A DNA stretch of 64,000 nucleotides, from assembly GCA_964016885.1 (NCBI GenBank), contig OZ024740.1, positions 179,862,001-179,926,000 on the forward strand, given 5' to 3'. This stretch comes from Eledone cirrhosa. Lineage: Eukaryota. Below the pieces are notes generated by a model. It saw only the letters and a program-made list of their open reading frames with translations, did not search any database and was not told the DNA's origin. How positions within the stretch are numbered: position 1 is the first letter of the stretch; each line of letters opens with the position of its first letter. A program made the position numbers and the translations under genes. Below are positions 24,066 through 60,150 of this stretch, piece after piece.

Positions 24066-25256
24066 TCTTTGAGTCTCAGTCATTGATGTTAGTTAACTGG
24101 AAAGTTTGTTGAAATGAATATCAAGCCACTACCTGCAGCCTCATATATTCAGGACGTATCGGAGGGTTCTTGGTGTTCACAGCAAGCATGCCTTTTGAAG
24201 CGTTCCAAAAAGCGTGGGGGGGGGGGGGGGCATTTTTCTTTAACCATCCATCCCTGGAAACTTTTTGAGATAGTACCTATTTCGCCTATGACAATCGGGA
24301 CCACTTTGATTTCATGGCAGTTCCAAATCCTTTTTACCTCCCACTTTAAGTTCTAGTATCGGTTAATTTTCTTCCTCTCCTTCTCTTGCACTCTCGTGTC
24401 GAATGGGCAGGCCACATTCACAATCAGGCACGATCTTTTCCCTTGTCCAAAACTACCAGGTCAGGTCTATTGTGTTCCAGTTTCTTGTCCGTCTCTATCC
24501 TAAACTCTCACAGCACCTTCACCTGATGTGCTTGTTGACACTGTCCGTATTCTCAGCAATGATATATGTATGCAATTTGGAATTAGTAAGTGTGGAGTCC
24601 TTGTGATGAAGAGGGCTAAATTGAGCAGAAGCAACGGAATCCAGGTACCAACAGGTGAGATGATAAAGGAAATTGACACTGAAGAAGGATACAAGTATTT
24701 GGGTGTTCTGGAGGCTGATTACATCAAGAACAAAAAAATGATCTGAATACATTCGGAGAATAAGGAGCGTATTAAAGTCACATCTGAACAGTATGAATGC
24801 CATAAGTGCAGTACATTCCCGAGCTGTGTCTATTATTAGGTACAGTGCGGGAATTCTGAGATGGAATGTTGCTGAACAAAACGAAATGGATAGGAAGACT
24901 AGGAAGCTATTGACTATCTACAACATGTTCCACAAGAGGAGTGATGTCGATAGACACTACTTAAGGAGATCTGAATGTGGAAGAGGTCTTATCAGCATAG
25001 AGAACTGTGTTCAGATGGAGAAAAACAACCTACACATATACGTGACTGATAGTAAGGAGCCAATGCTCAGAATTGTACTGAAGGAGAGGAAAATAGACCA
25101 GGGGATGTCCAAGGAGGAAGTAACAACAAGGAGAAAGAGCAGCCTTCATGAAAAATCCCTTCATAGTACCTTCTTTGAGAAAACTGAATTCAGAGATCCA
25201 CAGACATGGAACTGGTTGAAAAGATGAGACCTTAAAAAGGCTACAGAAGGAATGCG
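24066..25256 (-). mobile_element. R4/Dong family A copy A0: 3' end (24066-24525, -) joined to an inverted internal segment (24526-25256, +)
   Basis: 3' UTR and RLE C-terminus match 30247-30697; the + strand segment encodes LVDTVRI...YKYLGV...GRGL...KKATEGM. Confidence 0.85.
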
Positions 25257-25262
25257 ATTATG

Positions 25263-25322
<60 letters not shown>

Positions 25323-25408
25323 GTTATTGTTATTCCTTGAATCTCAGTCATTGATGTTGGTTAACTGGAAAGTCCGTTGGATTGAATATCAAGCCACTAC
25401 CTGCAGCC

Positions 25409-28801: not shown

Positions 28802-29370
28802 TTCACCGTTATTCGAACTGTTTATGTTCGATATTTAAACACTCTTATCGAGGATTGGCGAATGTATGTTTACATAGCCATCTGTGGATCCGCCATCCCA
28901 CTTGGCCCTTGTGTGGCATTATCACCACGCTGTATACGGACACACATAAACAAACAAACACACGGGCAGAAAGGGCCCCAAAAATGAATAAGCATAAGTT
29001 TCATTGTAATGTAGTATTCGAATGTCTGACTTAGTTTTTGTTTTTTAAGTTTTACTTTTTCCCCCCTCTTCTCTGTCTGTCCGCCTGCTTCTCTCTTCAT
29101 TCTTATTTTCTTTACGTTTTTGGGGTTTCTTTTTTTGTTTTTGTTTTTCTCTGTTTTTCTCGTTTTTTACTGTTGTTGCTGTGCTGCTTTTGTTGTTTGT
29201 TTTTTCTTTTTTCTTTTGAGTCTATCTATATATTTTGATGCCTTCCTCTTTGTTAGTAGTAGGAATTCTATAATGTGGAAGTGGTAGCCAGCAGAGACTA
29301 GCGGCGTTGGCGATACTGAGACAGTGGTGGCGGTGATGTCGATACTGAGGCAGTGGTGGCGGTGATGCGA

Positions 29371-30018
29371 CCGTATTACTGTAGTGATGGTGCTGTAGCG
29401 GTGGCAGCAGCAGTGAAGGAGTCAGGGGGTGGTGGCGGCGGTGATGGGATAGTGGTGGTAATGATGGCCGTAGTGAGCGGTGGCGGTGAAGGTGAAAATG
29501 CTGTTGTGTTTAGTGTACACAGATGATGGGGTGGGTGGTGTATCTAGTTTCTGGTGTTGGTGAGTTTCGCTGTCCTATATAGTGTAGCCAGAGGAGAGGA
29601 GGGGGGGGGGTTCTTCTTCTTCCATTTATAGCCATTTTTTTTTTTTTTTTTTTTTGGATATACAGTGTACAATACAAAGTTGAATATTTGAATATTTGAG
29701 CCGTATTACTGTAGTGATGGTGCTGTAGCGGTGGCAGCAGCAGTGAAGGAGTCAAGGGGTGGTGGCGGCGGTGATGGGATAGTGGTGGTAATGATGGCCG
29801 TAGTGAGCGGTGGCGGTGAAGGTGAAAATGCTGTTGTGTTTAGTGTACACAGATGATGGGGTGGGCGGTGTATCTAGTTTCTGGTGTTGGTGAGTTTAGC
29901 TGTCCTATATAGTGTAGCCAGAGGAGAGGAGGGGGGGGGTTCTTCTTCTTCCATTTATAGCCATTTTTTTTTGGATATACAGTGTACAATACAAAGTTGA
30001 ATATTTGAATATTTGAGC
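29371..30018. repeat. Tandem duplication (period 330 bp) in the 5' region of A1
   Basis: ccgtattactgtagtgatgg... starts at 29371 and 29701; copy A3 has a single unit (42032-42350). Confidence 0.9.
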
Positions 30019-30186
30019 CTTATAACAATATATTTTGGGTCCGAATTTTTTGGGGCTCAAGCCGGGTGCTTTACGTAGCATTTGTACTAAGAGTTGTTAT
30101 TTCACAAATTATTTAAATATGTTAAAAATTCAAAACTTACGGGAGCGATTTCATGACCTCCGTCACCTCGTGCGTCTTCTTCCCTC

Positions 30187-30234
<48 letters not shown>

Positions 30235-30246
30235 CATTGTTATTAC

Positions 30247-33200
30247 TCTTTGAGTCTCAGTCATTGATGTTAGTTAACTGGAAAGTTTGTTGAGATGAAT
30301 ATCAAGCCACTACCTGCAGCCTCAGATATTCAGGACGTATCGGAGGGTTCTTGCTGTTCCCAGCAAGCATGCCTTTTGAAGCTTTCCAAAAAGCGTGAAG
30401 GGGCCAATTTTCTTTAACCATCCCTGGAAACTTTTTGAGATAGTCCCTAGTGCGCCTATGACAATCGGGATCACTCTGAATTCATGGTAGTTCCAAATCC
30501 TTTTTACCTCCCACTTTAAGTCCTGGTATCGGTTAATTTTCTCCCTCTCTTTCTCTTGCACTCTCGTGTCGAAAGGGCAGGTCACATCCACAATCAGGCA
30601 CTATCATTTTTCTTTGTCCACAACCACCAGGTCAAGTCTATTGTGTTCCAGTTTCTTGTCCGTCTGTATCCTAAAATCCCACAGCAACTTCACCTGATCG
30701 TTTTCTATCACCGCCTCTGGATTATGCTCATACCACTTCTCAGAATGTGGTAAATTGTTTACTTTGCATAGTTGCCAGTGGAACACCCTGCCCATCACAT
30801 CATGTCTCCAGCTCTTATAGTGAGTCTGGGCTAGGTGTTTACACTCGGATACAATGTGAGTCACAGTCTCCTCTCTCTCTCCACAGATCCTGCACTGTGG
30901 GCTAGCCTCCTACTTGTAAATGTGGTGTTTCAACCACTTCGTTTTGAGGGCCTGCTCCTGCGCAGCCATTAACATTCCTTCTGTAGCCTTTTTAAGGTCT
31001 CTTCTTTTCAAACAGTTCTATTAATTGGATCTCTAAATTCAGTTTTTTCAAAGAAGGTACTATGAAGGGATTTTTTCTGAAGGCTGCTCTTTCCCCTTAT
31101 CTGCTCTTTCTCCTCTGCTCAACTTACCCCTCCCCATCACAATGACTCCACACTTACTAATACCAAATTGCATACATATTTCATTGCTGAAAATACGGAC
31201 AGTGTCAACAAGCACATCCAACTCCTTCTCACTCTTCCAGAAGAGTTTAAGATGGTCCATGAAGAGGAGGTGATTGATGGCAAGCCCTCCCTTTCCCAAC
31301 CTGTATCCTGCTCTCACTTTTCGCAGTACACTGGTCAGGGGCATCAGGGCAAGGACAAACAACAGAGTGGACAGACTATCTCCCTGGAAGATACCTCTCT
31401 TGATCTTCACGCTTCCCAAGGATTCTCCAGTTGATGTTAACTCTGTTTCCCAGGACTTCATACTTTTTCTCAACAACTGCCTGATGTTATCTGCCACCTT
31501 GAAGATCTCCAGGCTTTTGGTGATCCAAGAATGAGGCACCATGTCAAATGCATTTTGTAGTCTATCCATCCCATGGCAAGACCAGTGTGTCTCCTCTTGC
31601 AATTCCTCATTACCATCTTATCAATAAGTAACTGGTCCTTTGTACCACGTGACTTCTTTCGGCATCCTTTCTGTTCGTCCGGTAACAAGTTGTTTGTGTG
31701 GAGGTGATGGTAGATTTCCTCAGACATAATGCTTGTCAACAGTTTCCACATTACGGACAGACATGTGATAGGTGTATAGTTGGTAACATCATTACCCTTG
31801 GTTCGGTCTTTCATTATCAGAACTCTGGTACCTTTTGTCAACCACTCTGGTACCTCACCTGACATCAAGCAGTCATTGAACATGGTTGTCAGTTTCGGGT
31901 GGAGGGATGTTATTTTTTTAATCCAATACCCCTGCACACCATCTGGGTCTGATGATTTCCAGTTGGTTAGTTTTTTGGCCTGCCCCTTAAGAGTTTCAAC
32001 CGTGATACTCAAATCAGTTTGTTGGCGTGTCTTGTCTGTTCACTGATCTCCTTCTGTACTGTCTCAATCCACACTGCCTGGTCATTATGTTTAACATCCT
32101 GCTCCCATATTCCTCTCCAGAATGTTTTAGTTTGTTCCGCGTCAGGGATCAAGTCGTTGCCTCTTTCTTTCCCTTCAAGCTGTCCAAACAGCATCTTCTG
32201 GTTGTTGTCGAACATGCGGTTCTGTCTATACTGGCTGACTCTGTTCTCGTATCGCCTGATTTTTGCACTCTTTGCTACAATGCGTTGCTTCAGTTCCTCT
32301 ATGATAATATTTAGCTTTTTCCTCCTAGTTTTGTACTTTATTTCCAGTCTATTTTTAGTGTCTATGTTTTTTAGTGTCCCATTCAGTAGGGACTCAAGCT
32401 TTCCAATGTCATTTCTCATTTCCCTGATGTGACCACTCAGTCGTTTCTTCCACCAGGGCTCTGCTCTTTCTTGTCTGTTGTTTCCTATCGCTTTTATACC
32501 AAGTAGTTTCCTCACCGTATTTGCTGTTGCTTTGAGGATATTGTTGCACTGGTGAAGGCTCCTCGCCTCAAGGTATGGGATGACTTTGTTTACCTTAGCT
32601 GTTGTTTCTTTTAACTTTTTCCTGTCTACAAATCTTAGGTTCATAGGTCTCTCACTATCATTGTTCAATTCATCTACCACTAAGTTTAGGATATCTACCA
32701 AATCTTGTCCTAGCCCGTCAGCATTCATCTCCACAGTGGCCGTATCTCTGTTCCAGGTATTATTTATCTCAGCATTCAGATCATTGTCTGTTACGGGTGG
32801 TTCCTCCGTTCTCTCGACCTCTTCACCTTCATTTCCCACTGGCTCGTTTGCCTGGCATACTCCACCCTCCATCTCCAAGCTAATCTCTCTGCCCAGTTCC
32901 TCCAGTTCCAACTCGCTTATCCACCCATTAGTTCTTATTACCCGAGCCTGCCCGGCCAGTTTTTGTTCATCTAATTTAAATAAACCAATCTCGTTCCAGA
33001 TGTTATGCATCCTTTTCCTGTAGCCTTTCTCCTTAGGGTTACTCTTCAGGTAACATTGCATAACAGTTCTATTCAATTCTTTCGTCCAGTTGTTCTGGTC
33101 CCTTTCCTTCTTCTTCTTCCTCCGACACCAGCAGTATTTGGTTAACAGCCAGGTCCCTGCTGCTGAGCCAGGAAGCACCTGTTGGGTGAGAGTCTGTCAC

Positions 33201-35250
33201 ATGACATTCTAGTCTCCATTTCACCGTTATTCGAACTGTTTAGGTTCGACATTTAAACACTCTTATCGAGGATTGGCGAAGGTATGGTTACATAACCACC
33301 GGTGTATTACTTGTCTCCGGTGGATTCGTCACTCCACGTGACTTTTGTGTGGCATTATCACGCTGTAGACGAACCCAAACAAACAGACAAACAAACAGGC
33401 AGAAAAAACCCCCAAAATGAATAAGCATAAGTTCCATTGTAATGTAGTGTTTGAATGTCTGACTTAGTTTTTCCCTTCCCTTCTCTGTCCGTCCGTTTGT
33501 TTTTCTCTTCATTTTTATTTCCTTTACGTTTATCGTTGTTGCTGTGCTGCTTTGATTTTGATTTTTTTTTTTTTAGTCTATTTATATATTTTGATGTTTT
33601 CCTCTTTTAGTGGGAATTCTACAATGTAGCAGGGGATAGCGGGAGAGAATAGCGGCGGTAGTGATATTGAGGCAGCGGCGGTGGTGGCGGTGCTGTGCTA
33701 GCAGCAACTAGCAGGAGGTAGTGGGAGAGAATGGCGGCGGTAGCGATAGTGAGGCAGCCGTGGTGGTGATGTGGTCGTATTACTGTGGTGATGATGTTAA
33801 AGTTGGAGTAGAAATTTGAGTCGACTTGATCAGAGTTTTCATCGTGGTAGTGGTGGTGGTATTGGTGGTGAAATTATCTTTAGTGAAATTATCGTTAGTC
33901 GCGTATATGTGTTAACATTTACCCATAATATTGGAATTAAACATTTTGTTAAAACTAAAACTCGATTTTGATTATTGTTTTTTTTATTTTGATCGGGTCA
34001 TCAATTCAGTCTATTTATATATTTCGATGTTTTCCTCTTTTAGTGAGAATTCTACAATGTAGCAGGGGGTAGCGGGAGAGAATAGCGGCGGTAGTGATAT
34101 TGAGGCAGCGGTGGCAGTGCTGTGCTAGCAGCAACTAGCAGGAGGTAGTGGGAGAGAATAGCAGCGGTAGCGATAGTGAGGCAGCGGTGGTGGTGATGTG
34201 GTCGTATTACTGTGGTGATGGTGTTAAAGTTGGAGTAGAAATTTGAGTCGACTTGATCAGAGTTTTCATCGTGGTAGTGGTGGTATTGGTGGTGAAATTA
34301 TTTTTAGTGAAATTATCGTTAGTCGCGTATATGTGTTGACATTTACCCATAATATTGGAATTAAACATTTTGTTAAAACTAAAACTTGATTTTTATTTTA
34401 ATTTTTAATTTTTTAAAATTTTAACCAGGTCATCAATTCAGTCTATTTATATATTTTGATGTTTTCCTCTTTCAGTGGGAATTCTACAATGTAGCAGGGG
34501 GCAGCGGGAAAGAATAGCGGCGGTAGTGATATTGAGGCAGCGGCGGCGGTGGCGGTGCTGTGCTAGCAGCAACTAGCAGGAGGTAGTGAGAGAGAATAGC
34601 AGCGCTAGCGATAGTGAGGTAGCGGTGGTGGTGATGTGGTCGTATTACTGTAGTGATGGTGTTGAAGTTGGAGTAGAAATTTGAGTCGACTTGACCAGGG
34701 TTTTCATCGTGGTAGTGGTGGTGGTATTGGTGGTGAAATTATCTTTAGTGAAATTATCGTTAGTCGCGTATATGTGTTGACATTTACCCATAATATTGGA
34801 ATTAAACATTTTCTTAAAACTAAAACTTGAGGCAATAGTAATAGTAATTATTATTATTATTCTGAGATTGGTGGTGGTGGTGGTGAAATTGCCGTTATCG
34901 GGCTGTTGTATTTAGTGTACACAGAGGGGTCATGGGGTAGGTGGTGTATCTGGTTTCTGATGTTGGTTAAATTGCTGTTATTTGGCTGTTCTATATAGTG
35001 TAGACAGAGGGGGTTTCCTTCCATTTATAACCATTTTCTTTTTGAATATAAAATGTATAATACAAAATTGAATATTTGAGCGATATAACAATATATTGTG
35101 GATTCGAATTTTTTGGGACTCAAGCTGGATGTTTTATGCAACATTTGTACTAAGAATAGTTATTTCATAATTGACTTAAATATGTTAACAAATCTAAACT
35201 TACGGGAGCGATTTCTCGACCTTCTATCCACCATGTGTGTCTTCTTCCCT
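30247..35250 (-). mobile_element. R4/Dong family A subfamily copy A2, full extent but frameshifted and internally deleted
   Basis: ORF pieces 32009-33178, 31470-32012, 31060-31602, 30604-30864 and 30322-30591 match A1; the segment from ..LSRSNG to ..RRKSS is missing at ~31105. Confidence 0.92.
33575..34830. repeat. Three ~432 bp tandem monomers in the 5' region of A2
   Basis: agtctatttatatattt... starts at 33575, 34008 and 34440. Confidence 0.9.
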
Positions 35251-35270
35251 TATTATTATTATTATTATTA

Positions 35271-37926
35271 CAGTTGCATCTATCTTGCTTTATGTTCATA
35301 CGAGTTATCACCAAGTCACAACCAGTGACCTCAAGAGACAACAAGGTCCGCCATGTTCAAGAAAGAACATACATACTCACCCATGCATATTTAGTGTTTA
35401 GACTTGTGATGTACTTATATTGACAGAATCTTCCTTAGTATATGGGCAGTTCCCATTAGTACTATCTTTTGTATTTCTCCTATACGCGGGTTTCCTGGGA
35501 TTTGCGATAAGTAATCATTAGACCCCTTAGGTATCATTCCCAGAGCGCCTACAACCACTGGTATTGTTTTAGTTCTCAATTTCCACATGTTTCCAATTTC
35601 TATCTCCAGGTCCTTATACTTGCTCAATTTTTCAAATGTTTTTATAGATACATTCTTGTCTATTGGAACAGACATATCAATTAGCAGGCATACCCTCTTT
35701 TTAAAGTCCTTCAATATTATATCAGGTCTATTTGCATCTATTTTTCGGTCTGTTTGGATGCTAAAGTTCCACAAGATTGAGATGTGATCTTTTTCAAGTA
35801 TGGGAGGTGGTTGATGCTCCCACCAATTCTTTTGATGGGGCAGGTCAAAATGCTTACACATTATCCAATGTATGTATTGTGCAGCTCTTTCATGCCTGTT
35901 TAGGTATTCAGTTGGAGCTATAGGACTGCACATTGAAATTATATGGTCAATGGTCTCTGGTTGTTTTTTGCATACACAGCATAATGGGCTGCATCCTTTT
36001 TTTATTATCTTGGCTTGGTAATTTTTTGTTGGCAGACACTGATCTTGTGCTGATATAATCAGTCCTTCAGTCTCCGATTTCAGTCCAGAGGATGCCAACC
36101 ACTGATGGGTTAAAGTGTTGTCAACATCAGGATTGTTAACTCGCTCTGGGTATTTTCCATACAGAGGCTTTTCTTGCCATTTCTGAGCCAGTTTCTGTAG
36201 CAGTTCTTTCTTTGCAGTTACTTTTACCTGCTTTGCTTTTTCTGTGTTTTCCACTTCAGCAGTAAATGGGACTTCTGAAATTTGTAGTCCATTACTGTAT
36301 CTTTGTGCATCTTTTGTAATGGAATATGATCTTTTCATGCTTTCGTGTTTCAAAACGAGTTTGATCATCCAATAATGTGATTCCCTTAGATATGTAGATA
36401 ATCCAATTGTTGCAGTTTTCAACGCAATGTCTAACTGGATTAACCCACGTCCTCCTTCTTTCCTAGGGAGATATATTCTATCTATATCTGCCTTAGGGTG
36501 ATGCATTCTGTGCATGGTTAAGAATTGTCGAATTTTTGTATCGAGCCTACGGATCTCTGTGCTTGACCAGTTGATGACATTGTAACTGTTGGTTACTACT
36601 GGTATGGCAAGCGTGCTTTTGGCATCGATCCTATTCCTTGCATTCAATTCCGTTCTTAAGATTGCTCTTACTCTGCGGTAACATTCCTTCCTTATCCTTT
36701 CCCTCATTGTCGAGTGCTTGATTCCGTCTCCTTCACAAACACCTAGATATTGTAAGTTTTTTTCTTGATCAAGTTCTCTTATCACGTTCCCCCGATCAAG
36801 ATTAATGTCTGAACTCTTCAGCAGCTTTCCTCTGGTGAACGTTGCTTTGGCGCATTTATCTAGTCCAAACTCCATTTTAATGTCATCACTGAACTGCTCC
36901 ACAGTGGATAATAGTCCTTGCAATTGTTCATCATTTTTTGCAAATAATTTCAGGTCATCCATGTAGAACAGGTGATTAATAGTTTTGTCATAGACTTTAT
37001 ATCCATGTTTTGTTTCATTGAGTTTTTTACTTAATGGTATAAGTACGATGCAGAATAAAAGCGGTGATAAAGAGTCACCCTGAAAAATTCCACAATTAAT
37101 ATTAACTTCTCCAGCTTCCAGTGATTTTGTTTCACTATTCAAAAGGAGTGTCGTTTTCCATGTCTTCATACTGAATGACAAAAACCTCCTGACAACGGGG
37201 GATATTTTGAAGATCTCTAAACATTTTTCAATCCAACTGTGTGGCAAACTATCGAATGCTTTTTTATAATCTATCCAAGCAATCGATAGATTTTTGTGTC
37301 TATTATGACAATCTTCCAGTATCATTTTGTTAACCAGAAGCTGATCCTTACAGCCATATGAGCCTCGTTTACACCCTTTCTGCTCAATGGGAAATAGGGC
37401 ATTTGTTATCAGGTGGTCATATGTGTATTCAGTTATGACTGATGTTAACATTTTATACATTGTGGTCAAGCAAGTTATCGGTCTGTAATTTTTGGGATTG
37501 TTTGTCTCATCATTCTTCGGAAGCAGGAATGTAATGCCGTTAACTAACCATGATGGTATCTTTTCTGACTCCTTAACTATTTCATTGTAAATTTGGGCTA
37601 ACAGCTCATGGGACTCTGTGAAGGCATTTATCCAAAAGTTTTGTATTTTGTCTTTTCCTGGGGATTTCCCTTTGCTGGTTTTTCTTAGAGCCAAGCGCAA
37701 CTGTTCAACTGTTATATTTTCCCATATTTGTTCCTCAAGGTGAGCTGTATCTTTCATGTGTCTGTCTATCCATGGGGCATGTATGTTATGAACTTTTTCT
37801 TCGGCCCAGATCTTTTCCCAGAATTCTTGCACTTCCTCCTTGGGTGGTATTGATTTAGCAGTTATTGTTGACTTACCAATTTTTCTGTAGAAGTTTCTTT
37901 GGTTGTTTTTGAACACATTATTGTCC
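35271..37926 (-). mobile_element. R4/Dong family B element, 5'-truncated, in (TAA)n
   Basis: 3' UTR (35271-35414) differs from family A; open RT-RLE frame; (TAA)n on both sides. Confidence 0.92.
35415..37916 (-). CDS. R4/Dong RT-CCHC-RLE protein, N-terminally truncated (833 aa open)
   Basis: KSPGKD, YRPITCL, IDYKKAFD, GIFQGDSLSP, YMDD, GGRGL, CCVCKKQPETIDHIISMC, RHE, PDIILKD...IDMSVP, KLSKYKDL. Confidence 0.9.
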   Translation of the reverse strand: MFKNNQRNFYRKIGKSTITAKSIPPKEEVQEFWEKIWAEEKVHNIHAPWIDRHMKDTAHLEEQIWENITVEQLRLALRKTSKGKSPGKDKIQNFWINAFTESHELLAQIYNEIVKESEKIPSWLVNGITFLLPKNDETNNPKNYRPITCLTTMYKMLTSVITEYTYDHLITNALFPIEQKGCKRGSYGCKDQLLVNKMILEDCHNRHKNLSIAWIDYKKAFDSLPHSWIEKCLEIFKISPVVRRFLSFSMKTWKTTLLLNSETKSLEAGEVNINCGIFQGDSLSPLLFCIVLIPLSKKLNETKHGYKVYDKTINHLFYMDDLKLFAKNDEQLQGLLSTVEQFSDDIKMEFGLDKCAKATFTRGKLLKSSDINLDRGNVIRELDQEKNLQYLGVCEGDGIKHSTMRERIRKECYRRVRAILRTELNARNRIDAKSTLAIPVVTNSYNVINWSSTEIRRLDTKIRQFLTMHRMHHPKADIDRIYLPRKEGGRGLIQLDIALKTATIGLSTYLRESHYWMIKLVLKHESMKRSYSITKDAQRYSNGLQISEVPFTAEVENTEKAKQVKVTAKKELLQKLAQKWQEKPLYGKYPERVNNPDVDNTLTHQWLASSGLKSETEGLIISAQDQCLPTKNYQAKIIKKGCSPLCCVCKKQPETIDHIISMCSPIAPTEYLNRHERAAQYIHWIMCKHFDLPHQKNWWEHQPPPILEKDHISILWNFSIQTDRKIDANRPDIILKDFKKRVCLLIDMSVPIDKNVSIKTFEKLSKYKDLEIEIGNMWKLRTKTIPVVVGALGMIPKGSNDYLSQIPGNPRIGEIQKIVLMGTAHILRKILSI

Positions 37927-37976
<50 letters not shown>

Positions 37977-37988
37977 GTTATTGTTATT

Positions 37989-40900
37989 CCTTGAATCTCA
38001 GTCATTGATGTTGGTTAACTGGAAAGTCCGTTGGATTGAATATCAAGCCACTACCTGCAGCCTCAGATATTCAGGACGTATCGGAGGGTTCTTGCTGTTC
38101 CAAGCAAGCATGCCTTTTGAAGCGTTCCAAAAAGCGTGAAGGAGCCGATTTTCTTCAACCATCCCTGGAAACCTTTGGAGATAGTCCCCAGTGCGCCTAT
38201 GACAATCGGGATCACTTTGACTTCATGGTAGTTCCAAATCCTTTTCACCTCCCACTTTAGGTCCTGGTATCGGTTAATTTTCTCCCTCTCCTTCTCTTGC
38301 ACTCTCGTGTCGAACGGGCAGGCCACATCCACAATCAGGCACGATCTTTTTTCTTTGTCCACAACCACCAGGTCAGGTCTATTGTGTTCCAGTTTTTTGT
38401 CCGTCTGTATCCTAAAATCCCACAGCACCTTCACCTGACTGTTCTCCATCACCGCCTCTGGCCTATGCTCATACCATTTCTCAGAATGTGGTAGATTGTT
38501 TACTTTGCACAGGTGCCAGTGGATCACCCTGCCCATCACATCGTGTCTCCAGCCCTTATAGTGGGTCTGGGCTAGGTGTTTACACTCGGACACAATGTGA
38601 GCCACAGTCTCCTCTCTCTTTCCACAGATCCTGCACAGTGGGCTAGCCTCCTCCTTGCAGATATGGTGCTTCAACCACTTCGTTTTGAGGGCCTGCTCCT
38701 GCGCAGCCATTAGCATTCCTTCTGTAGCCTTTTTGAGGTCTCCTCTTCTCAACCAGTTCCATGTCTGTGGATCTCTAAATTCAGTTTTCTCAAAGAAGGT
38801 ACTATGAAGGGATTTTCCCTTAAGGCTGCTCTTCCTCCTTGATGTTATTTCCTCCTTGGATATCCCCTGGCCTACTGTCCCCTCCTTCAGTACAGCTCTG
38901 AGCATTGGCTCCTTACTATAGGTCACGTATTTGTATAGGTTGTTTTTCTCCATCTGAACACAGTCCTCTATGCTGATAAGACCTCTTCCACCCTCAGATC
39001 TCCTTAGGTAGAGTCTATCGACATCACTCCTCTTGTGGAACATGTTGTAGGTAGTCAATAGCTTCCTAGTCTTCCTATCCATTTCTTTTTGTTCAGCAAC
39101 ATTCCATCTCAGAATTCCCGCACTGTGCCTAATAATAGACACAGCTCGGGAATTTACTGCGCTTATGGCATTTCTGCTGTTCAGATGTGACTTCAGTACG
39201 CTCCTTACTCTCCGAATGTATTCAGTTCTTAACAATTCCTTCATTTTTTTGTTCTTTATGCCATCAGCCTCCAGAACGCCCAAATACTTGTATCCTTCCT
39301 CAGAGTCAATTTCCTTTATCATCTCACCTGTTGGTATCTGGATCCCCTTACTTCTGCTCAACCTACCCCTCTTCATCACAATGACTCCACATTTACCAAT
39401 ACCAAACTGCATGCATATATCACTGCTGAAAATACGGACAGTGTCAACAAGCACATCCAACTCCTTCTCACTTTTCCCGAAGAGCTTAAGATCGTCCATG
39501 AAGAGGAGGTGATTGATGGTAAGCTCTCCCCTTCCCAACTTGTATCCTGCTCTCACTTTTCGCAGCATAATGGTCAAGGGCATCAGGGCAAGGACAAACA
39601 ACAGAGGGGACAGGCTATCTCCCTGGAAGATACCTCTCTTGATCTTCACGCTTTCCAAGGATACTCCAGTTGATGTCAACTCTGTCTCCCAGGACCCCAT
39701 ACTCCTGCCCAGCAACTGTCTGATGTTATCTGCCACCCTGAAGATCTCCAGGCTTTTGGTGATCCAGGAATGAGGCACCATGTCAAATGCCTTTCTGTAG
39801 TCTATCCATCCCATGGCAAGATCAGTGTGTCTCCTCCTGCAATTCCCCATTACCATCTTATCAATAAGCAACTGGTCCTTTGTACCACGTGACTTCTTTC
39901 GGCATCCTTTCTGTTCGTCCGGTAACAAGTTGTTTGTGTGGAGGTGATGGTAGATTTCCCCAGACACAATGCTCGTCAACAGTTTCCACATTACGGGCAG
40001 ACATGTGATAGGTCTATAGTTGGTAACATCATTACCCTTGATTCGGTCTTTCATTATCAGAACTGTGGTACCTTTTGTCAACCACTCTGTCACCTCACCC
40101 GACACCAAGCAGTCATTGAACATGGCCGTCAGCTTCGGGTGGAGGGATGTTAAATGTTTAATCCAATACCCCTGCACACCATCTGGGCCTGGTGATTTCC
40201 AGTTGGTAATTTTTGGCTTGCCCCCTAAGAGTTTCAACTGTGATACTCAAATCAGTCTGTTGCTGTGCCTGCTCACCGATCTCCCTCTGTACTGTCTCAA
40301 TCCACCCTGCCTGGGCATTGTGTCTAACATCCTGCTCCCATATTCCTCTCCAGAATGTTTTAGCTTGTTCCGCCCCAGGGATCAAGTCGTTGCCTCTTTC
40401 TTTCCCCTCAAGCTGTCCAAACAGCATCTTCTGGTTGTTGTCGAACATGCGGTTCTGTTTATACTGACTGACTCTGTTCTCGTATCGCCTGATTTTGGCA
40501 CACTTTGCTACAATGCGTTGCTTCAATTCCTCTATGATAATATTTAGCTTTTTACTCCTAGTTTTGTATTTTATTTCCAGTCTATTTTTAGTGCCTATGT
40601 TTTTTAGTGTCCCATTCAGTAGTGACTCAAGCTTTCCTATGTCATTTCTCATTTCCCCGATTTGCCCACTCAGTCGCTTCTTCCACCACGGCTCTGCTCT
40701 TTCTTGTCTGTTGTTTCCTCTCGCTTTTATACCAAGTAGTTTCCTCACCGTATTTGCTGTTGCTTTGAGGATATTGTTGCACTGGTGAAGACTCCTCGCA
40801 ACAAGGTATGGGATGACTTTGTTTACCTTAGCTGTTGTTTCTTTTAACTTTTTCCTGTCTACAAATCTTAGGTTCATAGGTCTCCCACTATCATTGTTCA

Positions 40901-42508
40901 ACTCATCTACCACTAAATTTAGGATGTCAACCGAATCTTGTCCTAGCCCGTCAGCATTCATCTCCTCAGTGGCCGTATCTCTGTTCCAGGTATTATTTAT
41001 CTCAGTATTCAGATCATTGTCTGCTTCGGGTGGTTCCTCCGTTCTCAGGACCTCCTCACCTTCATTTCGCGCCGGCTCGCTTGTCTGGCATACTACACCC
41101 GCCATCTCCAAGCCATTCTCTCTGCTCAGTTCCTCCAGTTCCAGCTCGCTTATCCACCCATTAGTTCTTATTACCCGAGCCTGCCCGGCCAATTTTTGTT
41201 CATCTAATTTAAATAAACCAATCTCGTTCCAGATGTTATGCATCCGTCTCCTGTAGCCCCTCTCCTTGGGGTTACTTTTCAGGTAGCATTGCATAACAGT
41301 TCTATTCAATTCTTTCGTCCAGTTGGTTCTGGCCCCTTTCCTTCTTATTCTTCCTCCAACATCAGCAGTATTTGGTTGACAGTCAGGTTCCTGCTGCTGA
41401 GCCAGGGGGCACCTGTTGGGTGAGAGTCTGTCACATGACGTTCTAGTCTCCATTTCACCGTTATTCGAACTGTTTATGTTCGATATTTAAACACTCTTAT
41501 CGAGGATTGGCGAATGTATGTTTACATAGCCATCTGTGGATCCGCCATCCCACTTGGCCCTTGTGTGGCATTATCACCACGCTGTATACGAACACACATA
41601 AACAAACAAACACACGGGCAGAAAGGGCCCCAAAAATGAATAAGCATAAGTTTCATTGTAATGTAGTATTCGAATGTCTGACTTAGTTTTTGTTTTTTAA
41701 GTTTTACTTTTTCCCCCCTCTTCTCTGTCCGTCCGCCTGCTTCTCTCTTCATTCTTATTTTCTTTACGTTTTGGGGGTTTCTTTTTTTTTTTTTGTTTTT
41801 CTCTGTTTGTTTTTCTCGTTTTTTGCTGTTGTTGCTGTGCTGCTTTGGTTTTGTTGTTTGTTTTTTCTTTTTTCTTTTGAGTCTATCTATATATTTTGAT
41901 GCCTTCCTCTTTGTTAGTAGTAGGAATTCTATAATGTGGAAGTGGCAGCCAGCAGAGACTGGCGGCGTTGGCGATACTGAGACAGTGGTGGTGGTGATGT
42001 CGATACCGAGGCAGTGGTGGCGGTGATGCGACCGTATTACTGTAGTGATGGTGCTGTAGCGGTGGCAGCAGCAGTGAAGGAGTCAAGGGGTGGTGGCGGC
42101 GGTGATGGGATAGTGGTGGTAATGATGGCCGTAGTGAGCGGTGGCGGTGAAGGTGAAAATGCTGTTGTGTTTAGTGTACACAGATGATAGGGTGGGTGGT
42201 GTATCTAGTTTCTGGTGTTGGTGAGTTTAGCTGTCCTATATAGTGTAGCCAGAGGAGAGGAGGGGGGGTTTCTTCTTCTTCCATTTATAGCCATTTTTTT
42301 TTTTGGATATACAGTGTACAATACAAAGTTGAATATTTGAATATTTGAGCCTTATAACAATATATTTTGGGTCCGAATTTTTTGGGGCTCAAGCCGGGTG
42401 CTTTACGTAGCATTTGTACTAAGAGTTGTTATTTCACAAATGATTTAAATATGTTAAAAATTCAAAACTTACGGGAGCGATTTCATGACCTCCGTCACCT
42501 CTTGCGTC

Positions 42509-45991: not shown

Positions 45992-46342
45992 GTGAGGTTT
46001 TTTTTACAAAATGAAAAATAACCGAGGTGTCCTACACGAGTGAAAGTATAAAGAAAAGAAAATGAAATCGAAAATGCAACTGGAGTCTTATTTTTAAAAA
46101 AATATATATATTTATTTGGTTCCATTACCGGTTTCGCAGTTCTTCTGCTTTTCAAAAGTAGAGTTGAGATGGAGGGTCATGGTTTTTCTCACATCTTTGA
46201 GAAACACCACAGACCCTCCATCTCAACTCTACTTTGGAAAAGCAGAAGAACTGCGAAACCGGTAAAGGAACCAAATAAATATATATATTTTTTTAAAAAT
46301 AAGACTCCAGTTGCATTTTCGATTTCATCTTTTTTCTTTATA
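45985..46342. mobile_element. Foldback element (arms ~46048-46190 / 46198-46342) with a degenerate HHR
   Basis: Inverted arms; a-gcag-aagaa-ctgc-GAAA-ccg-GTA preceded by a decayed core; near-identical copy at 54590-55269. Confidence 0.75.
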
Positions 46343-46958: not shown

Positions 46959-46998
<40 letters not shown>

Positions 46999-47113
46999 TA
47001 GAACACTGTAAGGTAATATCCTGAGTGGTAGAGCACTCAGTCCATGGGACGAGTTAGGTAGAAGGTGAAACAATTGTTCTCGGCGGTATGGTGAACTAAC
47101 TGTTGTGTAACCA

Positions 47114-47153
<40 letters not shown>

Positions 47154-47157
<4 letters not shown>

Positions 47158-48282
47158 ACGTGTTGAACAGGCAACACAACAGAGACAGACCCCGTGCCAT
47201 CAATAAAACAGGAAAAAACCACCAGTGTATGGAATCTATAACTTATGAAAGGCAGGGTAGACACACAATAATTAAAAATATAAGTTAAAATGCATATACG
47301 CACCTCTATAACTATATAACTCACGCGTACAAATCCAAAGAGATGTGTTTCGCCAGGAAGTTGTTGACTGAAATGGAATAGCCTATGGTTCATCAGCGCG
47401 TGCAAGACTAAACATTCCAGCCAACTCTAAGAGAATCTAAAGCGACCGTCCAGCTACACGCGGCAGAGAGTTGTCACAGCGTGTTTAGGGCAGTGAACCA
47501 GTGGTATCTGATGGACGAGCTCCTACAAAGGGCAGCCCCAAAAATCACTCAGAGAAGTGTGCTCAACCAAACAGAGAGAGAGGAAAGACTGTTATAAGGA
47601 GCGAAATATCACGATAAATTAATGGAGCCACAGTCTCTCGGTACTCCCTGTCAACAACGTGCTCAAAGAAAAAGGAACACCGAGCTCCCCAAAGTACATG
47701 TTGAAAAGGTAACACAGCAGAGAGAGACATGGAGTAGCGAGAGACTGTGGCTCCGTTAATTTATCGTGATATTTCGCTCCTTATAACAGTCTTTCTTCTC
47801 TCTCTTTTTGGTTGAGCATACTTCTCTGAGTGGTTTTTGGGCTGCCCTTTCTAGCAGCACGTCCCTCAGAGGCCACAGATTCACTGCCCTAAACACGCTG
47901 TGACATCTCTCTCCCACGTGTAGCTGGACGGTCGCTTTAGATTATCTTAGAGTTGTCTGGAATGTATAGCCTTGCACGCGCTGATGAACAATGGGCTATT
48001 CCATTTCAGTCAAACACTTCCTGGCGAAACAGATATCTTATAGAGGTGCGTATATACATTTTAATTCATATTTTTAATTATTGTGTGTCTACCCTGCCTT
48101 CCATAGGTTATAGATTCCATACACTGGTGTTTTTTTCCTGTTTTCTTGATGGCGCGCGGTGTCACTCTCTGGTGTGTTGCCTTTTCAGCATATTGTATTT
48201 TGGGGAGCCCTGGGTTCCTTTTCCTTCGAGCACGTTGTTGACAGGGAGTAGCGAGAGTCTGTGGCTCCGTTATTTTATTGTG
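47154..48282. mobile_element. 1.1 kb inverted dimer of ~540/514 bp permuted non-coding monomers, in (TA)n
   Basis: The left arm 47154-~47730 is the reverse complement of the right arm 47731-48282; each arm repeats its own start at its end. Confidence 0.8.
47322..47402 (-). ncRNA. Complete type I hammerhead ribozyme candidate
   Basis: cacgcg-CTGATGA-accatagg...cctggc-GAAA-cacatct-cttt-ggattt-GTA-cgcgtg: 6 bp stem I, paired stem III with a tetraloop, GUA triplet. Confidence 0.75.
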
Positions 48283-48655
48283 ATATATATATACATACAT
48301 TATTTAGGCATATATGCATATATCTTTGTGAATATGTGGGTGTAAGTTTGTATGATTTCAATGAATATTTACTAGAATGGTATACAATAATCAATATTTA
48401 TTTTCTGTTGACTAAAATAGGATGAAATCTGCAAATAATAGATAATTTCAAGATAGAATCTTACGGCACACCTGGTAAAATAAAAAATATAAAAAAAAGT
48501 ACAAATTGAAATTGTTTTTTGTTTCGCTCCGTAAACGGATGCATGGATACCCGTATTCTTCTACAAGAAATGTTGATGATAGGGAGACGATATAGATGCT
48601 AAGACTTATGAAACTCAATGTTCTAGGAATCTATAAATAATGATACGTTATAAAG

Positions 48656-49335
48656 CAGGGGTCGGCAACCTTTTGGAGAGAGAGCGCCAAACAACTATGC
48701 AGTGTCATGGAGGAGGGCCATGTTATTAAATATGTAAATACATTTTCTGGAGGTTTAAAGCAAAAGAAGGAATTTAATATAATTTTATTTTACTGCAGGA
48801 ATAACAAAAAAAAAAAGAAAAAAAACTACAAACACCTTCAACAAAAAAAGAAGCAAATTCTTTATTTTACTGCAGGAATAACAGAAAAAACAACTACTAT
48901 CACAATCAACAAAAAAATAAAAGGCAAATTCATTGTTACAAACGAAATACAGTTAGAAATAGTAAATGATTTAATGAGACACTTGTTTCTGCTTATTGTG
49001 CGATAACATCTCCACACCAGGTGAAATTTTTGTCGATGACAGGAGCAAAACATCATCCACGTGGTCGTCACGCACCCTTGTTCTTAAATGATTTTTAGTA
49101 TATTTCATTTTGGAAAAAAGTTGTTCACAAGCATATGTACTTCCAAATAACGATATCATCAGTTTCGCATTAGTCAAGATGTTTTTATATTTTCCGCTTG
49201 GCAATATATAGAAGAAGTCAGCAGTTTATTGTAGAAGTCAGCAGTGGATTAGAACTGAAATTTCGATTTCAAAGATTCGTCGCACTGTAAGTCAATTAAC
49301 TCCAACTGATATTATTCTGCCACTTGCTCCACACC
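48656..49335 (-). mobile_element. hAT (Charlie/SPIN-like) DNA transposon 3' end
   Basis: TIR caggggtcggcaacctt at 48656; transposase C-terminus YQLELIDLQCD and SLFGSTYACEQLFSKMKYTKNHLRTR...QKQVSH*. Confidence 0.85.
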
Positions 49336-50720
49336 TCTTTCGTTTTGTAGTGTTGTTTAATAATTGCTTTAAGTTAAGTTTTTTTTATGTATGCTTGAAG
49401 GTTTGGTGCAGTGGAGTATGATAGCTTAACAGTCTTAGAGTTTAGAATTTTACTGTATTTATGGGAATTAGGGAAATGCTTGTGAATTAACTTAAAGTAT
49501 GACAGAGATAGTCTCGTACAATTCTAAGCCTTAAAATGGGATTATACCAGATATACTTTCTACAACGTAATTTATTTGAGTTTGGTGATTATTTTCTAAT
49601 ATTAGTATGGCTGGTGGTACTGCGTCTGTGCGCTTGTATTTCTGTACTCCGGTTACATATTCTTTGATTTTGTGTGTTGCTATGTGTGCTATGGAGATTC
49701 CTATCAATGTATTCAATTGTATCCCGGTGGTCTGCATTCCTTAATGCGTTTTTATAGTATTCCGCATGTTCACTGAAAATCTGAGAGTTAGACGTTAGGC
49801 GAGAGATTCTGAGAGAAATACTACGAGGAACCGATTTGATCATGGAAAGTGGGTGATTCGAGTTAGAATTAATATAGGTAAGGTTCTCGTTTATCTTGTG
49901 GAAGGGTCGTATCAGTCCTGTATTCAAATTAAGAGTTACGTCTAGAAAATTTACTATTTTAAGTTTGTATTCGTACGTTATTTTTAGACCCAGTTCACTA
50001 AAAGATTTCCTAATATTTTTCCGTAGCCTTTCAAGATTTTGGTTATTTAAGTTATTAACTAATCGAAGCGCGTCGTCTCTATATATTCCCCCTATAGATT
50101 ATTACATTTTCCATGTAGTATGTGGGCTATGTAAATTCCCACAAGAACCGTGACCTCCGCTGGATCATTGGAGCCCATGGTGAAGTCGAAGTTAGTGGGT
50201 CTCTCCTTACGCTCCCATTAGCAGTCATCAAACTTGATAATAGTTTTTCTAGCCTCTAGAATAATATTAATTTCCTCTTCCGTGAGATCAGAATTGACCT
50301 TGGCAAACGATAGGGCCTTATGTAAAGTACTGGGTGAGATTGAAGAGTAGTATTAGTCTATATCGAATTGTATAAACTTAGACTTACTCTCGTTCTTAAC
50401 GTTATTAAACCAGCGAATTGCTTCGCTAGTATTGCCCCATTATTTAATTTCTATTCTCTTTTTTACAATTAAGTTATTACCCTGTCAAGTATATGTTTGC
50501 TAATTTTTCCTATGTCTGATTTAGAAGGGCATATAAGTCTACTCTTAGGGTTAGAGTCAAAATTTACCTTCTGGTCCTTCAGGTTAAAGGTGGGGGTTGC
50601 GGGTATAATCGGCTCGGTTCTATCGTCTATCTTGAGATTTTTCACTACTTTATATGCTTCGTTGTTAATGTTCGTTAGTGTAGTTCACTTGTTTTTCTAT
50701 ATTTCTTATGTAGTTCCTTG
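49336..50720 (-). mobile_element. Decayed Penelope-like element, Naiad-type RT
   Basis: LKDQK..F...RLICPSKSDIGKISK, FIQFDID, FDFTMGSND.AEV..LVG, GIYRDDAL, YINSNSNHP, IWYNP, TVKLSYS; many stops and frameshifts. Confidence 0.75.
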
Positions 50721-50986
50721 CTGTTGTTATGTAGTTCCTTGCTGTTGTATGTATCGAATTCCATGGTATACACATTAGCGGTCTTATAAGGTTTTGATGA
50801 TGTCTACCTGCTTTATTATTCATTCTTTATCTACACTCCGGAATACAGAAGAATCCGAAACTGAGTTTCTTTAACTATTCTTTCACAACTCATTGAGTAA
50901 CCCCTCACAGTACGTCGACCCTATCTAGTGTAGTAATTAACCATTACTGCATTCCGGATAATCCTAAGCATTTCTTGCATAACCTA

Positions 50987-57022: not shown

Positions 57023-60000
57023 TGTTCGGGGTACGCACGTGTGTGTGGTGTTTATACGTATTGTAGATGTATGTGGCGTCGTTCAAAAAACAATTTTTTG
57101 TGTGTGTATGTCCGTGGGTAAGTTCCTAAGGTAGTTCCGTAGAGGGTGGGATAAGTTGCCGGATATTTTCCTTGTGATGGAGTTGATGGTGGGAACGATG
57201 GCCAATGGTGTGTAATCCGTGGTTGTGTTGTTCGGAAGAGGGGAGATGTGGGGTGCGTTTGCAACAGGAAGTGGTCAGAGGTTCAAGGCAGGATGAGGGT
57301 AGAGGAGAATGACAGGTGGAGAGGGCTGTGTGTCTGTGTGTGCGGAGAAGTGGTCAGCAGTAGAGGAGAATGGCAGGTGGAGAAAGTCAGTGTGTCAATG
57401 AGTGCGGAGGTGTGGTGGACAGGGGAGAGTATGGGTAGGTGTGAATGGTGGAGTGGGCAGGTGGTGTATTAGTAGAGGTGTTAGTGGGATGTATGTGTGT
57501 GTGTCAAAGGGTGTGGATGGAGCGGGGAGAGGGAGAGAAATGTGTGGGGGAAGGTGAGGGAGTGTTGTGTACTGGTGTGTGCGTGCGTGTTTGGATGAGC
57601 GTGTGTGTGGTGAATGGGGGTGTTAGTGGGTGTTAGTATACTGGTGGTGGAGAAAGGGTTGAATGCGGGTGTGTTAGTGGGGGTCAGTGGTTGTATGGTG
57701 TGTATAGTGGGTGATGTAAGTGGATGTGGGTGGATGTGTGCGTTCTTGTGCGTTTTGTCGGGGGTATGTTAGTGGTATAAGTTGTGGGGTGGTGGGAGTG
57801 GATGTGTGGGTGAGGGTTAGTTGTGGTAGTAAGGTGTGTGGATAGTGTGAGTGCGTGTATTTATATACCGGTGGATCTGTGCGTGATAGGGGGGAGGGGG
57901 TGTTAGTATTGTTAGTTGTGGGGTGGGCGGTGAAAAGGAGGAGTGTGTTAGTGGTGTTAGTGGGGGATATTAGTGTGGGAGGGAAAAACAGGGCGGTCGA
58001 TGGCTAAAGGAAAAGGGGTGGGGAGTTCTAGCCAGGGGGAGTGTGGGTCTGTAGGGTGAAGATGGTGCGTTGTTCGACCCCGAGGCGCGTGGCGGGTGTT
58101 CCGTGGCATTGGTGTAGGCCACAGACTGGGAGGTGGTGCGCGGAATGTCTAGGGGATCCAAAGTGGCGGACGATGGGGGAACACCCGCCGAGACGAATAT
58201 CCCGGAAGTATTCGGTGAAACGGTCCGCCAGGCGACCTCCAGTCTGTCCGACCTAGTTTGCGCTACACTCCGTGCAGCGAAGTCCATAGACTAGGTTGGA
58301 GGAGGTGCAGCGGAAGGCGTGCCGGACTGAGGGAGAGTGGCCGTTGGGACCCTGGAAGGTGGTGGTGTTGGTGATGTGGGGGCAGGTGTTGCACCGAGGC
58401 CTGGAACAGGGAAGGGAACCGGGGGTGGGAAGAGAGCGTGGGTTGGGGGGTAGGGAGCTGCGGACGAGGAAGGTGCGGAGATTACGAGCGCGTTTGAAGG
58501 AGGGGAGTCGTGGGGATGGGAAGATGTGGGATGTGGAGGGGTTGGACTGTAGGCGTCGGAAGAGGCGGAGGATGGTGCGGTGCAGGGTTGGGTGGAGGGA
58601 TGGTAGGTGATGGGGGAGGGGAGACGGTGGTTGGGTGTGCAGTGGGGTGGGGTGAGGATGGTGGAGCGGTGGACAGCACGGGCACGAATGAGGGTGATGT
58701 GGACGAGAGAGGGGGCTTAACCACTGCGGATGAAATGGCCTGCTAGGGAAAGGGCCTGGGACTCAAACTCAGCATCTCCACTTAGAGGCGGCGTCTCCTG
58801 AGGAGTTGCGAGTAGCGAATAGAGTGTTTAGTGTGTGTAGGGTGGGATGAGGTGAAGTCGAGGTAGGAGTGGGAGGAGGTGGGTTTCAAGAAGGCGGAGG
58901 TGACGAGGGAGTGGTGGGAGGGCTTGATGGCGACGGAGATGTCTAAGAAGTGGACGCGGGTGGTGGAGATAGAGGTGGTGAAGTAGAGGGAGGGGTGTAA
59001 GGAGGGGTGTAAGGAGCAGAAGAAGGAGCGAAAGTATGATTGTCGGGTGATTGTCGTGTCTCCGATACAGTCGTCGATGTAATGACCGTACAGTTCGGGC
59101 GCGGAACCGGTGTACTAGGCAAACATTTGGGCCTCAACATGGCCAACGCAAAGGTTGGCATAGTTTGGGCCTCTTCTTTTGCCCATGGCTACACCCGTGA
59201 CCTATTGGTAAAACATAACCGAGAAGGAGAAACAGTTGAGGGGGAGGCCCAGCTTGGCAAGGCGAAGGAGGGTGGGGGTGGATGGGATGGTGGAGGAGCG
59301 AAGGTCGAGGTAGTGCATGAGAGCACGTAGGCCGTCGGCGTGGGGGTTGACAGTATAAAGCGACTTGATATCTAGGGTGAAGAGGAAGGGCTTTGGGCCG
59401 GGTGTGATTGGTGTCGGAGATGTGGGAGGGGAGGGTGGTGACGAGGTGGGCGAGGATGGAGTCAAGAAAGGCGGAGATGAGTTCGGTGGGGCAGTTGCAA
59501 GCGGAGACGATGGGGCGGTCGGGGTTGTCGGGTTTGTGCAGTTTGGGGAGGTAGTAGATAGTGGAGGTGCGCACGGTCAGGTGGGAAGCGGTGGGGAAGA
59601 GGAGGGAGGAGGAGACAAGGTGTTGGATGGTGAAGGAAACTTGTTGTTGGTAGAGGGTGTGGGGTCGCAGGGTAGAGGGCGGTAGAAGAGGGGGTTATGG
59701 AGCTTCCTGAGGGCTTCAACCGTGTAGAGGTCAGCGCGCTACACCACCACAGCACCTTGACCGCCTGTTTGATGACGATGTCATCTTGGCTACGGGGGGA
59801 GCGGAGAGCGAGGAGTTCGCCCCGTGAGACGTTATGCCGTTTGGACCGGTGGCGGAAGTCGAAGCGATTTCCTGCGCTAGCGTCGACGAACGCGTCCAGG
59901 GTGCTAAATATCCCTGGGGCCGGCGTCCAAGAAGATGGTCGTCGGCCCAGGGCGAGAAACGGGTCTGGGGCGTTCGGAGCTGGTGGCGTTTGATCGAAAT

Positions 60001-60027
60001 GTGCCTGTAGCTTCGTGCCGCGCAGAA
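57023..60027 (-). mobile_element. Second Neptune-type PLE (relative of 6711-9447), decayed, with longer 5' RT region and no own pLTR
   Basis: IYYLPKLHKPDNPDRPIVSACNCPTELISAFLDSIL, FTLDIKSLYT, GIY-YIG region ~58000-58300; 3' region matches 7900-8910. Confidence 0.88.
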
Positions 60028-60035
60028 TGTATGTA

Positions 60036-60150
60036 TAGAAGATCATACGCTATCAGTTTTAAGTTCGTGACTATGTCAATTACTTATTTTCGGCGAAAAT
60101 AAGTAAGTGACATAGTCACTGCTTTAAAGCTGATAGGGTATGGTCTTCTA
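60036..60150. repeat. 115 bp palindrome at the 5' junction of the second Neptune
   Basis: tagaagatcatac...ttacttattttcg-g-cgaaaataagtaa...gtatggtcttcta. Confidence 0.8.

Follow-up and report, generated by a model that had tools for sequence, protein, structure and literature searches.

A non-coding hammerhead unit with Penelope-like insertion anatomy as an abundant dispersed repeat in Eledone cirrhosa

Introduction

Two described systems come closest to the repeat reported here, the non-LTR retrozymes of animals and the EN+ Penelope-like elements (PLEs). The standard insertion of a PLE is described as combining a partial tandem, an arm that is inverted and truncated at its 5' end, and a tail on one of the two arms (PMC3846280, PMC8557442), and the Hydra clade is characterised in PMC8557442 by canonical hammerheads and a (TA)n target. 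The tail has been traced to two internal start sites of the reverse transcriptase (RT) on an RNA that needs no cutting; in vitro, the Poseidon PLE mainly used RNA that had not been processed, and its own hammerhead was dispensable (PMC11167929). A circle model for PLE tandems was proposed by Cervera and de la Pena (PMC4209133). For retrozymes, two complete tandem hammerheads are the working definition of an active element given by Li et al. 2026 (bioRxiv 10.64898/2026.07.22.740005), and 8/9 frog retrozyme dimers are reported to lack cleavage in vitro (bioRxiv 2026.07.22.740005). A pseudoknot bracing stems I and II is described for many natural hammerheads (Perreault et al. 2011, PMC3088659). 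The formation of tandem and inverted PLE inserts, the role of the hammerhead, and the mobilisation of animal retrozymes by PLEs are stated as open in PMC8557442, PMC11167929 and bioRxiv 2026.07.22.740005.

The window analysed here is a stretch of 64,000 nucleotides of the Eledone cirrhosa genome (GCA_964016885.1, contig OZ024740.1, positions 179,862,001 to 179,926,000 of the forward strand). It contains one old insertion of a non-coding ~540-nt hammerhead-bearing unit in a (TA)n tract. The locus is one decayed member of an abundant repeat family, and each part of its story has precedent.

Sequence sets

Copies were mapped to a natural copy of 538 nt (L004), which serves as the reference and whose coordinates are marked U. 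Set 1 comprises 116 loci picked by similarity or by hammerhead patterns, and leaves out repeats of one place, 5 segmental duplicates, 20 PLE loci and 6 loci of a divergent lineage. Set 2 comprises 80 loci from the first 100 of 1,031 matches to a junction motif, all on contig 1.

Results

The insertion (47153-48286) is an inverted pair whose arms are joined 5' to 5', with TA repeats at both outer ends (Table 1); the target-site duplication is unreadable here, since both ends are embedded in these repeats. Read outwards from the junction, the left arm holds a 29-nt remainder of the previous lap (47729-47701), a complete lap (47700-47161) and the 3' end A (47160-47153). A preliminary description of this DNA had proposed an inverted pair of arms longer than one unit, each repeating its own start. 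The pair was borne out, with the arms overlapping by 4 nt, and so were the self-repeats, of 33 nt at 85% on the left (47158-47190 versus 47696-47728, period 538) and of 47 nt at 91% on the right (47726-47772 versus 48240-48286, period 514). The shorter period of the right arm is mostly due to a 28-bp deletion in its hammerhead, between 48037 and 48038. Of 455 columns compared between the arms, 42 differ (9% of sites), which marks the insertion as old. The arms also have 10 minor variants in common where 1.7 are expected; both arms are therefore derived from one template. The longest ATG frame in the element, of 108 codons, spans the deletion.

Table 1. Features of the inserted element, in positions of the window
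Feature	Position	Strand	Basis
TA target tract, (TA)20	47116..47155	.	sequence, left edge of element
Left arm	47153..47729	-	alignment to copy L004 (U510-538 then U4-538, 89%)
Type I hammerhead, predicted	47321..47403	-	
Conserved long helix, 5' flank (47425-47405) with loop II (47384-47363)	47363..47425	-	
Inversion junction: 5'-truncated arms overlapping by 4 nt	47726..47729	.	
Right arm main lap, U50-538	47726..48190	+	
Right hammerhead remnant	47975..48037	+	
Right arm tail, U1-96, up to family 3' end B, then TA repeats	48191..48286	+	

The unit is an abundant dispersed genomic repeat of more than 1,000 copies, and a first similarity look gave 2,642 candidates. Exact matches genome-wide numbered 1,031 for a 30-nt junction motif, 359 for an intact-core hammerhead pattern and 96 for a 29-nt hammerhead pattern; every reversed control gave 0 matches, and the family patterns are therefore not due to chance. 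Subfamilies are 84-95% identical, lineage B lies near 75%, and lineage C has 62-66% identity across the full length of the unit, its period being close to 512 nt. The layout and the ends are common to all of these, and the copies are old, with a divergence within loci of mostly 2-9%. No description of the unit was found in the literature on retrozymes, hammerheads, Penelope elements and octopus; Repbase, Dfam or the supplements of papers may list the family. Two irregular arrangements were also seen among the copies. One and the same SINE-like sequence stands at closely matching unit positions (U38-56) in three loci (L050, L168 and L180), and in L246 (1106-1995) alternating inverted 24-29-nt stubs of the A end of the unit form a run that is repeated four times.

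The unit, which measures 510-545 nt over its copies, resembles the animal non-LTR retrozymes as described in PMC7229834: it is a non-coding, head-to-tail type I hammerhead unit with a GC content of 40-44%, found alongside coding PLEs. It is larger than the retrozyme circles of 170-400 nt given there, and lies inside the 51-972 bp range of the retrozymes of Li et al. (bioRxiv 10.64898/2026.07.22.740005), with which it shares the occurrence of some copies with two complete tandem hammerheads. The copies are dispersed, 5'-truncated and mostly inverted with two fixed ends, whereas retrozymes are described as arrays in PMC7229834, where the word 'inverted' has 0 occurrences. The hammerhead variant differs as well; no parent pseudo-LTR was found for the unit. 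At the level of sequence it displays the features of a retrozyme, namely a predicted hammerhead per unit, tandem dimers, no protein and no LTRs.

The arms end at two fixed 3' ends ~88 nt apart, one (A) just beyond the unit junction and the other (B) at U96. Of the 153 arm ends in set 2, 133 fall on A (68) or B (65) and 20 elsewhere; in set 1 the figure is 164 of 224 (A 86, B 78, elsewhere 60). Many of these other ends are, by eye, alignment breaks at expanded microsatellites. The A and B ends adjoin TA repeats in the listed copies. The 5' ends are scattered by variable truncation, and a microsatellite adjoins 49 of the 80 free 5' ends. A 5'-to-5' pair is present in 133/196 loci; convergent pairs were limited to 2 cases in 116 loci. 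Both ends could be classed in 88 of the 146 inverted pairs, the other 58 having at least one unclassed end, and these 88 comprise 83 A+B, 5 A+A and 0 B+B pairs (P=2.7e-19). The element in the window follows the same rule, with A on the left arm and B on the right.

These ends bear on two further claims of the preliminary description, which had taken the registers of the arms for permutations of one unit and the whole for a signature of circular RNA. Mapping of the 196 loci gives a different account of the registers, which are due to two fixed 3' ends and two 5' truncation points. The A and B ends and the tail on one arm thus appear as PLE-type insertion anatomy, not as free permutations. A partial tandem with an inverted arm and a tail is the standard insertion of a PLE (PMC3846280, PMC8557442), so the supposed signature is not diagnostic of a circle and points to PLE machinery, not to circularity. 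The likeness to EN+ PLEs (PMC3846280, PMC8557442, PMC11167929), notably to the Hydra clade, includes the partial tandem, the head-to-head truncated arm, the one-arm tail, the (TA)n target and a hammerhead upstream of two 3' ends. The unit differs from them in having no ORF, in a tail of ~88 nt versus 30-40 nt, and in the absence of a significant match to the three local families. The Chlamys non-autonomous elements such as MRC1, as described in PMC8557442, are comparable non-coding PLE partners with pseudo-LTRs and multicopy head-to-tail insertions.

The hammerhead of the left arm was described as complete, and it does have three stems and a GUA site. Stem I has 6 bp (47403-47397 with 47327-47321), and the core consists of CUGAUGA (47396-47390), A10.1 (47389), GAAA (47351-47348) and GUA (47330-47328), with the predicted cut between 47328 and 47327. 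The completeness needs qualification in that stem II (CCA/UGG) has only 3 Watson-Crick pairs and is closed by A10.1.C11.1, and that stem III carries a private C.U mismatch (47345). The minimum free energy (MFE) fold of the 81-nt piece 47322-47402 is not a hammerhead (z -0.84), and an Rfam scan of 61 matches, mostly microsatellite-driven miRNA models, contained no hammerhead family at E<=1. A construct of 47322-47402 leaves out the flank strand (47405-47425) that pairs with loop II. The right hammerhead has indeed lost the 3' strand of stem I, as had been noted; the 28-bp deletion also took away the GUA site and, in stem III, the 3' strand.

Over the family, the core is intact in 131/182 family-A hammerheads. 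Of these 182, 137 have A.C and 19 have G-C at position 10.1/11.1; this pair is C.C in 16/19 lineage-C copies, and G-C in 5/5 lineage-B copies, which were picked by a pattern demanding G. With such a non-canonical pair the predicted ribozyme may have low activity. A mismatch at this position has a natural precedent, U.U (PMC3088659); unlike in the hammerheads described there, 10.1 varies here (A, C, G) opposite a fixed C. The hammerheads of three coding PLE families of this genome (L066, L258 and L296), inspected by eye, likewise have no G10.1-C11.1 and show A-U, C.A and A.G.

The 5' flank of the hammerhead and its loop II form a helix of 13-19 bp. They pair in every lineage, with means of -21.0, -18.6, -13.7 and -16.4 kcal/mol, where shuffled loops reach -7 to -9; the partners are specific to the lineage (A/A -22.7 and C/C -19.8 versus -5.7 and -5.4 kcal/mol when crossed). 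In a hand-drawn structure of stems I-III and this helix, 91.9% of cells are paired versus 26-42% when the structure is slid. Covariation was assessed over 43 distinct copies of four lineages, which are related and from which the structure was drawn, and 10 pairs were changed on both sides; one pair of stem I is G-C in 20 copies and A-U in 20. The hammerhead and the helix are thus kept, with compensatory change, across lineages that are 62-66% identical, and compensatory change in a non-coding unit implies selection on the ribozyme. The helix itself has been kept by selection whether it forms a pseudoknot or an inhibitory hairpin. It could be a predicted pseudoknot bracing stems I and II, or a hairpin that blocks folding of the hammerhead; of the nested folds that include the flank, the one of lowest energy (-31.5) is incompatible with the hammerhead, whose fold has -17.5 when the pseudoknot is left out. 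The predicted bridging helix between stems I and II and the very short stem II recall the pseudoknotted hammerheads of PMC3088659; the helix there has 4-6 bp, whereas the longer one here is enough for an alternative inhibitory hairpin.

Three coding PLE families of this genome also have two 3' ends that adjoin TA and lie downstream of hammerheads of their own, and in PLE-3 the complete inverted pairs are A+B in 4/4 cases, among 20 loci picked by an A-ending query. Their coding sequences carry the motifs DKT, CxCX5C and CxxC..CxH. Pfam named none of the PLE fragments; Atlas clusters were of GIY-YIG type for the PLE-3 fragment and HTH_animal for the PLE-1 fragment. The local coding PLEs probably match the Hydra clade, by motif match to the published description and not by a tree; a reading of the neighbouring PLEs as Nematis was rejected in favour of Hydra on the description in PMC8557442.

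No recurrent junction between unit and ORF was found in 196 family-A or 25 family-C loci, and no RT/GIY-YIG ORF was seen between two unit copies in 202 loci and the 25 family-C loci, with flanks of 1.5-4 kb. Because no copy family runs into an ORF, the unit is regarded, from its sequence, as non-autonomous and retrozyme-like. This agrees with the proposal of the preliminary description, in that a non-coding ~540-nt type I hammerhead unit recurs head-to-tail in these 196 and 25 loci. The case that had been set against that proposal, a unit that is always the pseudo-LTR of a coding PLE, was not seen in the 202 loci or in the 25 family-C loci. PLE-like coding sequence lies within 3-8 kb of 40/202 loci, and only two arms (L015 and L203) touch it directly. 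Apart from a SINE, simple repeats and a single local duplication, the 80 free 5' ends have no non-unit junction in common.

Several candidate parents were considered and rejected. A pair of units spaced by 2.7 kb (L214) turned out to be a local duplication without an ORF. The neighbour of the insertion (49330-50985) is a decayed Hydra-like PLE with a minus-strand RT and linker and an inverted 3' end at ~50790-50985; it is cut off at ~49330 by the 3' part of a transposon (48657-49330), which is probably hAT-like by its motifs. The family of this PLE, with 1,535 candidates, has a hammerhead and two 3' ends of its own, and 0/19 other loci of that family match the unit. The PLE joined at L015 has an unrelated 3' untranslated region (UTR) in 29/29 other loci searched. 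The chimera in that locus (L015:560-2030) consists of an inverted B-arm of PLE-2, a piece of the PLE-2 ORF up to the stop codon, and the unit from U20 to end A; it may be a single hint of shared machinery, and could represent two insertions and a deletion. PLE-3 gave no significant alignment to the unit, and no alignment of the unit to any of the three PLE families was better than those of shuffles. A word-chain test favoured PLE-3 for 1/5 unit variants (4/1000, in 15 comparisons and designed after the motifs had been seen), a weak hint that does not suffice for naming a partner. A pattern of motifs shared by the unit and PLE-3 was discarded as evidence, since both families had gone into its making.

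Monomers and partial tandems make up most of the loci. Arms longer than one unit number 66/377, the longest being 1,257 nt (up to 2.3 units), and two whole hammerheads in one arm were found in 5/196 loci (L019, L087, L192, L209 and L231). The 5' ends do not pile up at the cleavage site: 0/62 arms of set 2, and 0/121 arms of set 1, which is biased by selection, stop within 3 nt of it. Moreover, 13/14 arms that reach the next upstream cleavage site pass it. A cut linear monomer that is read once is therefore excluded as the usual template. Different laps diverge by 6.95% versus 6.82% for same-position arms (27 loci, P=0.57), the odd-one-out test on laps gave 60:127 versus 1:2 expected, and 47 minor variants are common to different laps versus 13 expected. 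Comparison of tail and head over the 96 columns of U1-96 gave no fixed difference at P<0.05. When four natural units were folded as circles, 57-64% of the bases were paired (z -1.2, -1.4, -2.4 and -4.1), so that the circular folds are only modestly stable.

Discussion

The preferred reading, to which a probability of about 0.55 is given, is that a non-coding hammerhead unit is copied in trans by the RT-endonuclease of a PLE, probably of the Hydra clade, and most likely from a monomer that has been cut, re-joined and re-read. That the unit is a non-autonomous, PLE-mobilised hammerhead unit is in itself highly probable. The copies lie in (TA)n, with their ends at the fixed sites A or B. The PLE protein would nick both strands of the TA tract, with one strand primed at A and the other at B; both cDNAs would then extend variably over the unit junction and the cleavage site, and their 5' ends would be joined by a few overlapping bases. 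The product observed consists of two head-to-head arms, one of which bears a tail. Rare insertions with an arm that carries two complete hammerheads might release a monomer, which would circularise and start a new cycle. The copy in the window has decayed since its insertion, as its arms are now 9% different and its right ribozyme is deleted.

A lineage that is truncated at each step must regenerate its laps, and the conserved hammerhead together with the seamless passage over the junction would most simply suggest a cut and re-joined monomer. Against a circle stand, among other points, the modest stability of the circular folds and the failure of 8/9 frog retrozyme dimers to cleave. Given the identity as a non-autonomous PLE-mobilised hammerhead unit, the chance that the template is a circle is a little over one half. 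A bolder version is rather unlikely, in which an old, independently evolving circular-RNA retrozyme lineage (35% divergence) parasitises Hydra-clade PLEs, with a hammerhead that the 13-19-bp helix switches from an active, pseudoknotted form to an inhibitory hairpin and back, and a PLE dimer priming the two target strands at separate fixed sites of the circle.

The main competitor keeps the PLE-mobilised unit and the same priming sites and dispenses with the circle; a partial tandem would be read through into a linear RNA that serves uncut as the template, extra laps would arise by strand transfer (for example, in U1-96), and the role of the hammerhead would be limited to trimming or terminating transcripts. 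This is a serious possibility, of clearly less than even probability. The sole PLE tested in vitro worked mainly on unprocessed RNA (PMC11167929), and the absence of 5' ends at the cleavage site fits an uncut RNA. Seamless and identical laps are equally expected from a fresh uncut tandem source or from strand transfer in U1-96; the non-canonical 10.1/11.1 and the strong competing hairpin point the same way, as does the fact that the two hammerheads needed for excision of a monomer are found only in 5/196 loci. By itself, however, an uncut RNA leaves the compensatory upkeep of the stems and the flank-loop helix over 35% divergence unexplained. A purely linear, jump-free lineage would also shrink, and its head and tail copies would diverge, whereas U1-96 has no position-specific difference. 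Moreover, no source array was seen, with 1 tandem pair among the 96 listed hammerhead-pattern matches and no more than 3 junctions in a row in the first 100 of the 1,031 junction-motif matches.

It is improbable that some coding PLE has the unit as its pseudo-LTR (3' UTR, hammerhead and tail) and that the copies are truncated stumps of it. The anatomy is identical to that of the coding PLEs of this genome, PLE-like coding sequence stands near 40/202 loci and directly adjoins the arms of L015 and L203, and the similarity searches cover the best 40 candidates each. The arms, however, continue upstream into the previous lap, up to 2.3 units, and their free 5' ends meet a microsatellite (49/80) without a shared junction beyond the SINE, simple repeats and local duplication. 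In 29/29 other loci, the PLE of L015 ends in a 3' UTR unrelated to the unit, and the most divergent lineage is likewise a ~512-nt tandem unit. An inversion made at the DNA level after insertion, by fold-back or inverted duplication of a satellite-like repeat and without reverse transcription, is very improbable indeed. The whole element can fold back on itself (85% paired) and its arms share minor variants (10 versus 1.7 expected), as such an origin would have it; yet pairs are found in 133/196 loci, nearly always 5'-to-5' (2 convergent in 116) and A+B. Neither rule is expected of a DNA fold-back, which the A+B rule contradicts.

In this unit family, a retrozyme-like unit and the full insertion anatomy of PLEs come together. 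The family offers countable rules that constrain models, namely A+B in each inverted pair, no stop at the ribozyme site, and laps that are identical at insertion. The unit is also a 540-nt candidate substrate for an in vitro PLE assay.

Other repeats in the window

Immediately to the left of the element lies a 120-bp stub of another TA-targeting repeat family (46996-47115). It consists of two short pieces in opposite orientation, one of which starts at a GAAAC hammerhead-like motif, and it has matches in ~14 other loci among the loci compared. Two copies of another PLE, with an RT motif and a GIY-YIG-like end, are found at 6693-7899 and 58253-60049, and are presumably Neptune-like; a minimal hammerhead motif lies at ~9329 (9329-9355).

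In the region 24742-41486, non-LTR elements of one strand are clustered next to (TAA)n tracts, together with broken copies. Stop-free frames there include 1,141 aa (25409-28834; RVT_1 E=5.5e-22) and 860 aa (35415-37997), and by their motifs the elements are probably R4/Dong-like. Fragments of an endonuclease-RT non-LTR element, presumably L1/Tx1-like, are located at 22045-23599. At 46055-46335 there is a 124-bp inverted repeat (97%) with a 33-nt spacer, which might be MITE-like or another fold-back insertion.
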